A stretch of DNA of 39,564 nucleotides from an uncultured Heliomicrobium sp. (lineage in GTDB: Bacteria > Acidobacteriota > Blastocatellia > RBC074). Below are positions 6,244-9,419 of this stretch, piece after piece (the stretch's first letter is position 1; the number at the start of each line of letters is the position of its first letter). The DNA is taken from NCBI GenBank assembly GCA_964603695.1, contig CAZRXE010001330.1, forward strand, positions 1 through 39,564, in the 5' to 3' direction. Both the position numbers and the translations under genes were made by a program. The notes beneath the pieces were generated by a model, which did not search any database, had not been told where the DNA came from, and worked only from the letters and a program-made list of their open reading frames with translations.

Positions 6244-9200
6244 TGCTCCCATTAAATGCTGAATTGCTGCGGATCATCGCCAAAGCGGCGTCTCCCATCG
6301 AACGAGCGGGCGGGGAATGGTTCGTTCCGCTGCCTGAACAACCTTCGGGAACCATTTCGGGAATTATGGAGAAGCGCACAGCGCAATGGATCAACACCGT
6401 TGCCGTAGGCGATAAAAAGCTCTTCGACGAATATCTGAAAGCTCGCGGACTGGATCACGACGCTTTTATTCGTGCGGTTTCCGAAGGCACAGTCAACACC
6501 GACGCGCAATTGCCGGAGTGGGCACAGACCTTCCTGAACGTCATGGAATCGCTGGCGGCCTCCAACGACACTGCGATTGCGGCTCAGGTCGCGGGCAAAG
6601 AAACGGCCAATCCTTTCTATGATGTTCTGCTGCCTTTCCGGCGGGTTGCCACACTGGAACTGCGCACGAAATTAAACAGCCTGGGCCTTTCGATTTCCGA
6701 GCGCGCCGAAGCCGGACTGCTGGACATTCTGTTGGCGCGGTTGTCATCGGCAACCATTCACGTCGTTGACAACGAACTGCAAACGGCGCTGGCCGCCGGC
6801 AGTTTGCTGAAACAACTGGGCATCACGCCCCGGCAGCATCTGGACGGCACACCGGCGGGCTGGATGGAGCGGTTCAATCGTTATCCGGCGCTGGCTCGCA
6901 TGGTTTCGGTGGCTTATCAAAACTGGCGCAATTACATCTTCGAGATGCTCGAACGCCTGACGCTGGATCGCGCCTTGCTCGAAGAACAGATGTTTGCTGG
7001 CAAGCCGCTCGGAACGCTGGGCAAAGTCATCGGAGACGCGGGCGATTTGCACGATCAGGGCAGAGCCGTGGCGTTGCTGATTTTCGACAACGGCAACCGG
7101 CTGGCTTACAAGCCGAAAGATCTCAGACTTTCCGTAGCCTTTCTCAATCTCGTCTCGCAACTGAACGGTTTGGGACTGTCGCCCGCACTTCATTCCCGCC
7201 GGATGATTTCGCGCGGGCAATACGCCTGGGAAGAATGGGTCGAACACCAGCCTTGCGAGACCGCCGAGGAAGTGGACGATTTCTATTTCCGCATGGGGCA
7301 GGTGGTTCGCCTGCTGCAATTGCTTGGTGCCAGAGATTTCTGGCTGGACAACCTGATTGCCCACGGCGGGCAACCGGTTTTCATAGATTTGGAGATGGCC
7401 TTTCAACAGGCCATGGCGTTGCCTACGCAACTGCTTTCCGCCGAGCAGGAAGCCTTTGCCAGGTTGGTGGAAACAGTGGTTCCGATGGGCGCGATTACGA
7501 TGGTGACGCCGATAGGGCAGGGAATCAAAGCCGAAGACCTGGGCGCGCTGACTCCCGTGCGCGAGTTTCAAACCCCGTTCAAGTTCTCGTATTCCTCTCC
7601 GATGAGAGCCTTGCTTGCGCCGCATCTGAAGAAGAACGACAACACAAAATGGTACAAAACGGATTACACGCCGGTTTTGAACGGGCAGCCTGCGGTTGCC
7701 GCCGAACGCTTCGATCACGTCATCGCGGGTTACAAGTCAATGAACGCCTTTCTGCGCGCGAACCGCGACACGCTGCTTTCCGAAACAGGCCCCTTCAGCG
7801 ACATAGGAGAGTTTCCGCTTCGTCACATCACTAGAGATACCTGGAGCTGCCTGCGCATCATCAACGACAGCACGCGCACGGCGCTGCTGGTGGATGGTTT
7901 TCAGCGGGAATTATTCTTTGAAGGATTGATGAAGGTCGCCGTGGACGGCAACGTCGCCGATGCTCAACTGGTCAAGGTTTTGGAAAGCGAGATTGATTCC
8001 ATGCGGGATTTCGACGTTCCGCTTTCCCGCGCGCTCCCGGCTCAAACCAAACTGCTGCTGAGCAACGGCGGGGAAATTCATGATTACTTCGCCGAAAGCG
8101 CACTTTCGCGGATCACGGATCGGCTTCAGTCGTTGGATAATTTCGACGTTGACGAACACTGCGATTTCATTCGATCCGGTTTTGCAACCGGGCCTCATCA
8201 GGCTTGCTGGACGCCACCGGCAACCGGTAAGTCTCGCCGGTCTGTTCCGTCAAGGGAATTCTGGCTGGAGGAAGCCGTCAAGCTGGGGGATTTCATTCTG
8301 GCGCAGGGGCTGCGCGGTGCTGAAGGCGATCTGGCCTGGCTGGGCCTGATTTATCATCCCGACATTGATCTGCGTTCGGTGGATGTGCTGCGTCCTGATT
8401 TGCTCTCCGGCACCGCCGGATTGAGCGTGCTTTTTGCAGCCTTGTATGAAGCGACCGGACTGAACCGCTTTCGCGAGGCGGCGCGCGGGGCGCTGGCAAC
8501 GACCGTGCGTTCGATCCATGAGGGTCATCCGCTGCTCAGGATTTTTGATCGCAGCGGCCCTTCCAAATCGCGGCGAATCGCCGCCGGCGTTTATTACGGA
8601 GTGGGCAGTCAAATCTATTCGTTGCGCCGCTGCGCGGAAGCCTTGAACTCCCGCGAACTGGAGGAAACGGTCGCCGCTTACCTGGACATACTTCCGCTGA
8701 CGGAGTTGTGCGAACGTTCGCACGTTGATTTGATTTCCGGCTTGGCTGGTCTGCTGCATTCCATTCTTCCGTTTCACGGCGCGGCGCTGACTGATCCCGC
8801 GTTGCCTATTGCCGACGCGCTGGCGCAATATCTGCTCGATTTGTGCCGGCGGGAAGACGGCCAACTGAAAGAGCCTTACCCGGAATCGGCCTTTCTGCTG
8901 GAAGGATTGCCCGATCTTCCCAGCGGAATGGCTCTTTGCTTGGCCAGGTTTCAAAAATCGCTTGGGACGCAATCGCGGAACCCACTTCAAGAAAGCATTG
9001 AACCAACCATCATCGCGCTTGAAGCGATGAAACCGCCGGAGGTCGTGCGCCGAAACTGTTTATGGGCCGGCCTGTCAATCCACCGAACGCTGGATTGGCC
9101 CGCGGATGATTTGCTGGAACAGGTGAAGGAGCAAATGACGGCGGAATTTTCTCGGCTGCATTCGCAACGTTTGCTTGATTTGCTTGAGACTTCGCTGACC

Positions 9201-9419
9201 GCCCATCGAATCCGCCAATCGGAAGAGTTCCTCGGCGGCGCGGAGACAATCGCACTGCATTTGATTGAGCGGCGGGAACAGAGTGGATCATGGTTTCCGG
9301 ATGGTTTTGCCGCCGACCGGCATAACCTGTCCGCGATGCATGGCGTAGGAGCAATCGCCGGTTACTTCCTGAGCCTCTACAAACCTGAAGCGGCGCGCTC
9401 GCTCAGGGGATTGGAATAA
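6243..9419 (+). CDS. LanM-like protein (class II lanthipeptide synthetase dehydratase domain plus a divergent LanC-like domain)
   Basis: 1058 aa. Dehydratase-domain signatures are GDLHDQGRAVALLIFDNGNRLAYKPKD, YAWEEWVEH and DFWLDNLIAHGGQPVFIDLEMAF. The C-terminal LanC-like GxxG repeats are LLSGTAGLSVLF and LISGLAGLLHSI. The expected WCxG and CHG motifs read LPSGMALCL and AMHGVG. Confidence 0.85.
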   Translation: MLPLNAELLRIIAKAASPIERAGGEWFVPLPEQPSGTISGIMEKRTAQWINTVAVGDKKLFDEYLKARGLDHDAFIRAVSEGTVNTDAQLPEWAQTFLNVMESLAASNDTAIAAQVAGKETANPFYDVLLPFRRVATLELRTKLNSLGLSISERAEAGLLDILLARLSSATIHVVDNELQTALAAGSLLKQLGITPRQHLDGTPAGWMERFNRYPALARMVSVAYQNWRNYIFEMLERLTLDRALLEEQMFAGKPLGTLGKVIGDAGDLHDQGRAVALLIFDNGNRLAYKPKDLRLSVAFLNLVSQLNGLGLSPALHSRRMISRGQYAWEEWVEHQPCETAEEVDDFYFRMGQVVRLLQLLGARDFWLDNLIAHGGQPVFIDLEMAFQQAMALPTQLLSAEQEAFARLVETVVPMGAITMVTPIGQGIKAEDLGALTPVREFQTPFKFSYSSPMRALLAPHLKKNDNTKWYKTDYTPVLNGQPAVAAERFDHVIAGYKSMNAFLRANRDTLLSETGPFSDIGEFPLRHITRDTWSCLRIINDSTRTALLVDGFQRELFFEGLMKVAVDGNVADAQLVKVLESEIDSMRDFDVPLSRALPAQTKLLLSNGGEIHDYFAESALSRITDRLQSLDNFDVDEHCDFIRSGFATGPHQACWTPPATGKSRRSVPSREFWLEEAVKLGDFILAQGLRGAEGDLAWLGLIYHPDIDLRSVDVLRPDLLSGTAGLSVLFAALYEATGLNRFREAARGALATTVRSIHEGHPLLRIFDRSGPSKSRRIAAGVYYGVGSQIYSLRRCAEALNSRELEETVAAYLDILPLTELCERSHVDLISGLAGLLHSILPFHGAALTDPALPIADALAQYLLDLCRREDGQLKEPYPESAFLLEGLPDLPSGMALCLARFQKSLGTQSRNPLQESIEPTIIALEAMKPPEVVRRNCLWAGLSIHRTLDWPADDLLEQVKEQMTAEFSRLHSQRLLDLLETSLTAHRIRQSEEFLGGAETIALHLIERREQSGSWFPDGFAADRHNLSAMHGVGAIAGYFLSLYKPEAARSLRGLE

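Follow-up and report, generated by a model that had tools for sequence, protein, structure and literature searches.

The LanM-like protein and its genetic setting

The window analysed here covers positions 1 to 39,564 of contig CAZRXE010001330.1 (39,564 nucleotides (nt); assembly GCA_964603695.1, an uncultured Heliomicrobium sp. placed by GTDB in the Acidobacteriota). Its forward strand carries a gene for a LanM-like protein of 1058 amino acids (aa) at 6243..9419, which we suggest is very probably a LanMbC-type (CcaM-like) dehydratase of a dehydrazole pathway, the product being a carnazolamide-like proteusin. LanMbC proteins combine DUF4135 with a fused cyclase domain devoid of zinc ligands, and they yield ‘dehydrazoles’, i.e., peptides with dehydroalanine (Dha) and azoles (Pei, Zhu and Nair, Nat Commun 2023, PMC10676384). 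The characterised LanMbC dehydratase is CcaM of the carnazolamide (cca) pathway of Chryseobacterium carnipullorum, and LanMbC genes are syntenic with those of a YcaO protein, a dehydrogenase, a precursor with an NHLP leader and an S8 protease (PMC10676384). The LanM-like protein of the window is a divergent member of this enzyme class, already published in 2023.

The gene order around it is that of the cca cluster, with all of the following genes on the forward strand. The precursor with its NHLP-type leader (1795..2154) is followed by a fused E1-like/YcaO cyclodehydratase homologous to CcaB (2435..4681; Pfam YcaO E 1e-101, TIGR03604, TIGR03882), which is 50% identical to the YcaO protein of the cca locus. 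Then come a ThcOx/SagB-type azoline dehydrogenase homologous to CcaC (4720..6243; Pfam ThcOx and Nitroreductase, TIGR03605 E 7.4e-49), the LanMbC gene, a conserved small open reading frame (ORF; 9423..9974) and an S8 subtilase, the leader protease homologous to CcaF (9975..11168; Pfam Peptidase_S8 E 5.7e-47, 46% identical to CcaF). The ATG of the LanMbC gene and the stop codon of the dehydrogenase gene share one nucleotide (6241..6245). The same overlap is present in a related locus, L026 (ORFs 7478..9001 and 9001..12168), and it suggests translational coupling of the two genes.

A scan of species-representative genomes gave 25 related loci, among them the cca locus of C. carnipullorum DSM 25581 (L006). 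CcaM has 1015 aa in this locus, matching its description in PMC10676384. YcaO and dehydrogenase genes lie beside the LanM-like gene in 24 of the 25 loci. The closest relatives of the window protein are encoded in L026 (74% identity) and L027 (60%), and a close named homologue, P0005, with 60% identity comes from an Acidobacteria metagenome-assembled genome, which makes an acidobacterial origin of the window probable.

The N-terminal part of the protein matches Pfam DUF4135 (PF13575) at aa 214-594 with E 1.5e-81. This kinase/lyase (dehydratase) domain (6882..8024, +) is intact in its catalytic residues. In the family alignment of 46 sequences D268, H270, K290, D365, N370, D382, E384, R527 and T533 are invariant. 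These nine residues align with D252, H254, K274, D347, N352, D364, E366, R506 and T512 of CylM, respectively, which Dong et al. in 2015 are said to have assigned catalytic roles. Their retention argues for the dehydratase function that a preliminary description of this DNA, made from its letters, had ascribed to the protein.

The C-terminal part is matched less completely by the existing profiles. Pfam LANC_like is confined to aa 715-860, which correspond to profile positions 2-133 of 350, and TIGR03897, the NCBIfam LanM model, reaches 427.9 bits against a cutoff of 304 and spans profile positions 2-775 of 932. It is the dehydratase domain, together with the N-terminal half of the cyclase domain, that yields the TIGR03897 score; because the cutoff is passed in this way, databases name such proteins ‘LanM’. 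The two matches end at profile positions 133-137 of 350 and 775 of 932, respectively, before the ligand-bearing half, and the half of the cyclase profile with the catalytic motifs is therefore unmatched. Since a zinc-less LanM-like enzyme that makes Dha/azole peptides together with YcaO was published in 2023, our finding mainly confirms that ‘LanM’ is a misnomer introduced by automatic annotation.

The AlphaFold2 model of the protein, built from 46 sequences, has a predicted local distance difference test score (pLDDT) of 90.7 and a predicted template modelling score (pTM) of 0.92. Foldseek with the whole model finds LicM2 (E 3e-33) and CylM (E 7.9e-31). At the level of sequence the window protein and CcaM share 33% identity (residues 5-1058; BLASTP, 543 bits, E 0.0). 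We collected 68 homologous sequences, including about 50 of the same family and 7 canonical LanMs with the (S/A)HG, WC(H/Y)G and C(C/H)G motifs. The hosts of the family are Acidobacteria, Nostoc, Coleofasciculus, Polyangium, Archangium, Cystobacter, Tenacibaculum and Streptomyces. Its member P0045, encoded in L017/L018, belongs to Cystobacter fuscus, and a cluster of this species was also listed among the dehydrazole clusters (PMC10676384). The window protein has the following features of the LanMbC/CcaM family: DUF4135 with its catalytic residues, a LanC-like domain without the zinc-binding residues, full-length homology to CcaM, synteny with YcaO and dehydrogenase genes and a precursor of the NHLP type with a core rich in Ser, Thr and Cys. 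In the literature, a search for later papers on dehydrazoles, LanMbC or carnazolamide returned the original paper only.

Zinc-ligand positions of the LanC-like domain

The LanC-like domain (aa ~671-1058; 8253..9416, +) is a degenerate alpha/alpha-barrel without a zinc site. The preliminary description had noted its GxxG repeats together with an apparent lack of the Cys-Cys-His ligands, and the peptide strings that it quoted are all present in the ORF; the repeats LLSGTAGLSVLF and LISGLAGLLHSI lie at aa 720-731 and 830-841, respectively. It had further taken DLPSGMALCL for the WCxG motif and AMHG for the CHG motif. The lack of ligands is confirmed by our alignments, and the two motif assignments are replaced.

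The ligand positions were mapped by three independent alignments: phmmer against LicM2 (PDB 6ST5), MAFFT, and a global profile-profile alignment with hhalign. In the latter the family profile of the C-terminal domain matches the canonical LanM cyclase domains with a probability of 100% and E 9e-43. The mapping rests on canonical LanM homologues, because a search of the same profile against PDB sequences covered no more than the N-terminal half of the domain and its final repeat. Foldseek with the C-terminal domain finds LanCL1, GCR2, MadC and NisC with TM-scores of 0.54-0.64 (normalised to target). In the AlphaFold2 model the inner helices begin at about residues 724, 787, 834, 892, 940, 974 and 1035. 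In NisC, according to what Li et al. are said to have reported in 2006, His212, Cys284 and Cys330/His331 belong to repeats 4, 5 and 6. The helix starts therefore place the two sites of the preliminary description in repeats 4 and 7, while the ligand repeats are 5 and 6.

Repeat 4: DLPSGMALCL occupies aa 891-900 (8913..8942, +), where canonical enzymes have the acid/base His motif (xHGxxG), and D891 replaces the His. The string itself and the numbering of C899 had been given correctly, and the range 8916-8939 was one codon short at each end. In the phmmer alignment LicM2 H794 pairs with D891 and the LicM2 string FSHGLTGIAF lies opposite DLPSGMALCL; in MAFFT and hhalign the His of the canonical F(S/A)HGxxG is likewise opposite D891. 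All three alignments thus reject DLPSGMALCL as the WCxG position. The column of the acid/base His contains Asp in 30 of 51 family members and His in none.

Repeat 5: the start of this repeat, PEVVRRNCLWAGL (aa 932-944; 9036..9074, +), stands at the position of the canonical WCHGxxG motif with the first zinc Cys, and the motif is absent. The canonical Cys falls opposite E933 in MAFFT and opposite a gap in hhalign, and the local alignment is uncertain by 3-6 residues here.

Repeat 6: the canonical C-(H/C)-G ligand pair corresponds to S974-Q975 (9162..9167, +) at the start of this repeat. MAFFT sets the pair opposite both residues, and hhalign leaves the first Cys in a gap and sets the second position opposite Q975. 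The canonical sequences have Cys at the first position in 7/7 and Cys or His at the second, also in 7/7. In the family the first position is Ser or Thr in 38/51 members and never Cys, and the second is variable, with His in 2/51.

Repeat 7: the M-H-G string is exactly at 9336..9344 (+), as had been described, and corresponds to M1032-H1033-G1034. It belongs to the last (seventh) GxxG repeat, so that it is not a CHG motif with the His kept. AMHG lies opposite the canonical lF(q/r)G, about 26 residues before the C-terminus, and opposite LicM2 residues 947-976. H1033 is found in only 8/51 members, and G1034 is invariant.

Taken over the whole family, neither Cys-ligand column contains a Cys in any of the 51 members, and the third-ligand column (His or Cys) contains His in 2 of them. 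A profile alignment against the canonical enzymes, which the preliminary description had proposed as a check, puts no Cys at these columns, be it C899 or another. C899, C939 and H1033 were also considered as displaced ligands, and they were rejected on their conservation (6/51, 3/51 and 8/51, respectively) and on their position relative to the helices. No invariant Cys or His was found in the C-terminal domain across the family alignment; the only conserved ones are H705 (31/51), C797 (37/51) and H1027 (41/51). The invariant residues of the domain are W699, G723, G726, G782, G786, G833, G836, S1030, G1034 and A1037. The absence of the Cys-Cys-His zinc site is real and far beyond chance, and the acid/base His is lost together with it.

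The protein shares with the canonical LanM enzymes (CylM 5DZT, LicM2 6ST5, ProcM) the two-domain fold, the kinase/lyase catalytic residues and GxxG repeats 1 to 3 of the cyclase domain. However, unlike them it has neither the acid/base His, nor the Cys of WC(H)G, nor the C(H/C)G pair, and by homology it would form no thioether, act independently of the leader and depend on azoles. Of the marks of a canonical class II synthetase it thus shows the score above the TIGR03897 cutoff and lacks the cyclase His and the zinc site.

With the class III LanKC enzymes (e.g., ThurKC, 8SAP) the common feature is a LanC-like barrel without zinc ligands, and the C-terminal domain of LanMbC was indeed called a ‘class III cyclase domain’ (PMC10676384). 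The similarity is weak here: the profile matches ThurKC with E 1.4, and Foldseek gives E ~1e-2. LanKC enzymes have a separate lyase and a Ser/Thr kinase, whereas the dehydratase part of the window protein is DUF4135. No Pkinase or lyase domain was found in the protein and the class III model NF038151 reached 30.7 bits against a cutoff of 575, so the class III architecture is absent. The C-terminal domain alone scores E 1.2e-27 with the class II model versus E 3.1e-9 with the class III model, and that of CcaM (L006 11900..13009) scores E 5.3e-22 versus E 9.2e-4. These profile scores suggest that the zinc-less domain arose by degeneration of a class II cyclase domain and not by import from class III. 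The published label reflects the missing zinc ligands, not the closest sequence kinship.

We consider W699, H705, C797, H1027 and S1030 to be candidates for the function that makes the C-terminal domain indispensable. The corrected residue map (D891, ~E933, S974, Q975) and the list of conserved residues could guide mutagenesis on the requirement for this domain.

Core peptide, proposed mechanism and alternatives

The precursor has 119 aa and consists of the NHLP-type leader (TIGR03793 E 2.6e-9, under the curated cutoff) and a 30-aa core. It is about 51% identical to CcaA (tblastn) and 92% identical to the precursor of L026. The core AASCQTTASTAGTVSTCVSSVSTASTNSCS (2062..2151, +) has the length of the carnazolamide core AASCQSTSSTCVTVPSCVSCVSSASTNSCS, and 22 of 30 residues are identical in a gap-free alignment. 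The AA|AA site cut by CcaF is retained within the AAAA stretch that both precursors share. The frame of the core is common to most of the 22 related loci compared: A-S-C-Q-x-T-x-S ... A-S-T-N-S-C-S is kept in Bacteroidota, Cyanobacteria, Myxococcota, Chloroflexota and Acidobacteria (precursors of L001-L026).

Carnazolamide, made with the full enzyme set, contains 8 azoles and 8 Dha and no lanthionine (PMC10676384). Its Cys17 and Cys29 are thiazoles (PMC10676384), and Cys4 is presumably a third one because Ser3 is converted to Dha. The three Cys of the window core are at positions 4, 17 and 29, i.e., at the thiazole positions of carnazolamide; therefore, they most likely become thiazoles, not lanthionines, through the adjacent YcaO protein and dehydrogenase. 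This was the expectation of the preliminary description, and it is the outcome shown experimentally for CcaM and carnazolamide. By analogy we predict azoles at C4, T7, T10, C17, S20, T23, T26 and C29 and Dha at S3, S9, S19, S22, S25 and S28, T6 and T16 being uncertain.

The differences between the two cores are in part mirrored by the enzymes. The cca core has 5 Cys versus 3 here. Cys11, inferred by elimination to be the methylated Cys of carnazolamide, is replaced by Ala, and the loci with the S-methyltransferase CcaH have Cys11. The epimerised Pro15 is replaced by Ser, and the radical SAM (S-adenosylmethionine) epimerase CcaD of the cca cluster has no equivalent between the dehydrogenase and LanMbC genes. 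A search of the window found no homologues of CcaD or CcaH. L026 is likewise without Pro15 and without the epimerase, but the correlation is imperfect, since L022, L024 and L025 carry a homologue of the radical SAM protein and have no Pro. Ser6 and Ser16 of the cca core are both Thr here. As an epimerase-less divergent member with a near-identical core, the system could be used to test the substrate rules of the enzyme, i.e., whether Thr is tolerated in front of an azole and whether position 20 can be an oxazole instead of a thiazole.

The core is also weakly recognised by the thiocillin-family model NF033482 (E 1.2e-7). The thiopeptide and goadsporin pathways follow the same logic, with azoles formed first and Ser/Thr dehydrated afterwards in a core rich in Cys, Ser and Thr. 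However, they use split LanB enzymes for tRNA-Glu-dependent glutamylation and elimination, whereas the dehydratase here is of the ATP-dependent LanM type, and the leader is of the NHLP (proteusin) type. No enzyme for [4+2] cycloaddition was found in the window.

By homology, we suggest the following mechanism.

Step 1: The fused E1/YcaO protein and the ThcOx/SagB dehydrogenase would form thiazoles and (methyl)oxazoles from core Cys, Thr and Ser residues.

Step 2: The DUF4135 domain would phosphorylate the Ser directly before an azole and eliminate the phosphate with the formation of Dha, independently of the leader. The LanC-like barrel would be kept because the dehydratase needs it in cis, plausibly for holding the azole-containing core.

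Step 3: The S8 protease would cleave within the AAAA stretch.

Homology, domain architecture, the family-wide ligand loss, the retention of the dehydratase residues and synteny were computed here. The azole-dependent and leader-independent dehydration, the lanthionine-free product and the requirement for the C-terminal domain are taken from the experiments on CcaM, and we infer that they extend to the window protein. CcaM is leader-independent and acts only after azole formation (PMC10676384), so that the thiols are already consumed. CcaM-N alone is inactive, as are CcaM-N and CcaM-C supplied in trans, showing that the C-terminal domain is needed in cis (PMC10676384). By analogy the C-terminal domain of the window protein is probably required rather than a passive scaffold, and the term ‘scaffold-only’ of the preliminary description does not fit. 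The term ‘cyclase-dead’ holds in its conclusion, because the product of the homologue is without rings; ligand loss by itself is not a proof, given that class III domains still cyclise. As part of the whole explanation, we regard it as highly probable that the barrel, having lost all three zinc ligands as well as the acid/base His, would form no thioether.

Several points weigh against this reading. The identity to CcaM is only 33%, and the window protein itself is known from its sequence and a model. The Ser before the azole in CcaA is Thr at T6 and T16, and CcaM dehydration was shown for Ser only, where it precedes an azole (PMC10676384). The main text of the 2023 paper is without metal analysis (PMC10676384), and to call the enzyme ‘zinc-independent’ is to argue from sequence, predicted structure and product chemistry. 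Finally, C939, near the N-terminus of the repeat-5 helix, could in this one protein be close to the former Cys site, although it has no partner ligands and is conserved in only 3 of the 51 family members.

Among the alternatives, the zinc-less domain could be a metal-independent cyclase that adds a thiol as the class III LanKC enzymes do, with at least one core Cys ending up in a ring of the lanthionine or labionin type. The cyclase domains of class III enzymes are devoid of zinc ligands and yet cyclise (PMC7268733, PMC10604976), the C-terminal domain is conserved and, in CcaM, required, and the class III model gives a weak match to it (E 3.1e-9). We consider such a cyclase improbable, since LanKC domains cyclise while the CcaM product, obtained with the full enzyme set, is ring-free, the core Cys correspond to reported (17, 29) or presumed (4) thiazoles, and CcaM would meet its substrate only after the azoles have consumed the thiols. 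Less probable still in our estimate is a canonical class II synthetase with displaced ligands (e.g., C899, C939 and H1033) that binds zinc and makes lanthionines. In its favour are the 427.9 bits with TIGR03897 against the cutoff of 304, and the position of C939 in a stretch of uncertain alignment leaves it some room. But the three residues are poorly conserved in the family, C899 is inside the repeat-4 helix and H1033 in repeat 7, the LanM and LANC_like profiles stop before the ligand-bearing half, and the acid/base His has been lost as well.

A third alternative, a C-terminal domain that is a functionless evolutionary remnant, either literally ‘scaffold-only’ or decaying, seems hardly credible to us. 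All of its catalytic residues are gone and the similarity to the LanC profile is limited to the first three repeats, as expected for a remnant. However, the full-length domain is retained in at least six phyla with W699, S1030, G1034 and A1037 invariant and H1027 conserved in 80%, the barrel is modelled with high confidence, and CcaM without its C-terminal domain is inactive and is not rescued in trans. Hence, we keep to the LanMbC-type dehydratase, its zinc-less barrel being probably required.

Additional genes of the cluster and of the window

Unlike the cca cluster, that of the window adjoins genes for a B12-binding radical SAM protein and a glycosyltransferase family 9 (GT9)-like protein. 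The former (3..803, +; tblastn against L027) is represented by its C-terminal part, being cut by the 5′ end of the window. Positions 3-734 encode a sequence 63.5% identical (tblastn) to aa 382-625 of the 633-aa B12-binding/Radical_SAM protein of L027. In L026 the precursor gene comes immediately after the B12-radical SAM gene, which in L026 and L027 alike is itself immediately preceded by genes for a stand-alone YcaO protein and TfuA. We suggest that this gene is probably part of the same cluster and that the cluster probably extends beyond the 5′ end of the window. The GT9-like protein of 266 aa (820..1620, +) has a weak match to Pfam Glyco_transf_9 (E 1.8e-6) and is 75% identical to the product of L027 10024..10824 (-), which lies adjacent to the L027 cluster. 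Possibly it acts as a tailoring enzyme, one that the cca cluster does not have.

The 183-aa small ORF that separates the LanMbC gene from the protease gene (9423..9974, +) is assigned by homology to its cca counterpart. It is 35% identical (E 4e-26) to a 152-aa ORF at the same position of the cca cluster (L006 13017..13475) and is also present in L007-L010, L012, L014, L019-L021, L026 and L027. It has many invariant residues, e.g., in RYGL, DPxW, PAC, FEWVF and GVVRV. No match was found in Pfam, NCBIfam or PHROGs. The AlphaFold2 model is a beta-sandwich of moderate confidence (pLDDT 68.5), and a Foldseek search of it against the PDB gave nothing significant, the best E being 0.07. The ORF was neither named nor used in the reconstitution (PMC10676384); a conserved component outside the published reconstitution is thus of some use.

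We put forward one more, tentative idea, to which we give somewhat less than even weight as a whole. The epimerase-less carnazolamide-type machinery of this, probably acidobacterial, subclade, together with the B12-radical SAM protein, the GT9-like protein and a stand-alone YcaO protein and TfuA encoded outside the window, might make a new dehydrazole that is C-methylated and/or carries a thioamide. At the same time, the zinc-less barrel might serve as an azole-recognition module, with W699, C797, H1027 and S1030 as candidate residues, and the small ORF might supply an extra component.

About 5 kb downstream of the cluster a MacB/FtsX-type ABC permease of 876 aa is encoded on the reverse strand (15879..18509), which may be an exporter. 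The other genes recognised further downstream are also on the reverse strand and apparently unrelated to the cluster. They encode a sigma-54 activator (20596..22545; FHA and GAF domains), a DUF4384-containing Ser/Thr kinase (25469..27295), a 1162-aa WD40-repeat protein (27439..30927) and an IS110-family transposase (30924..31580).

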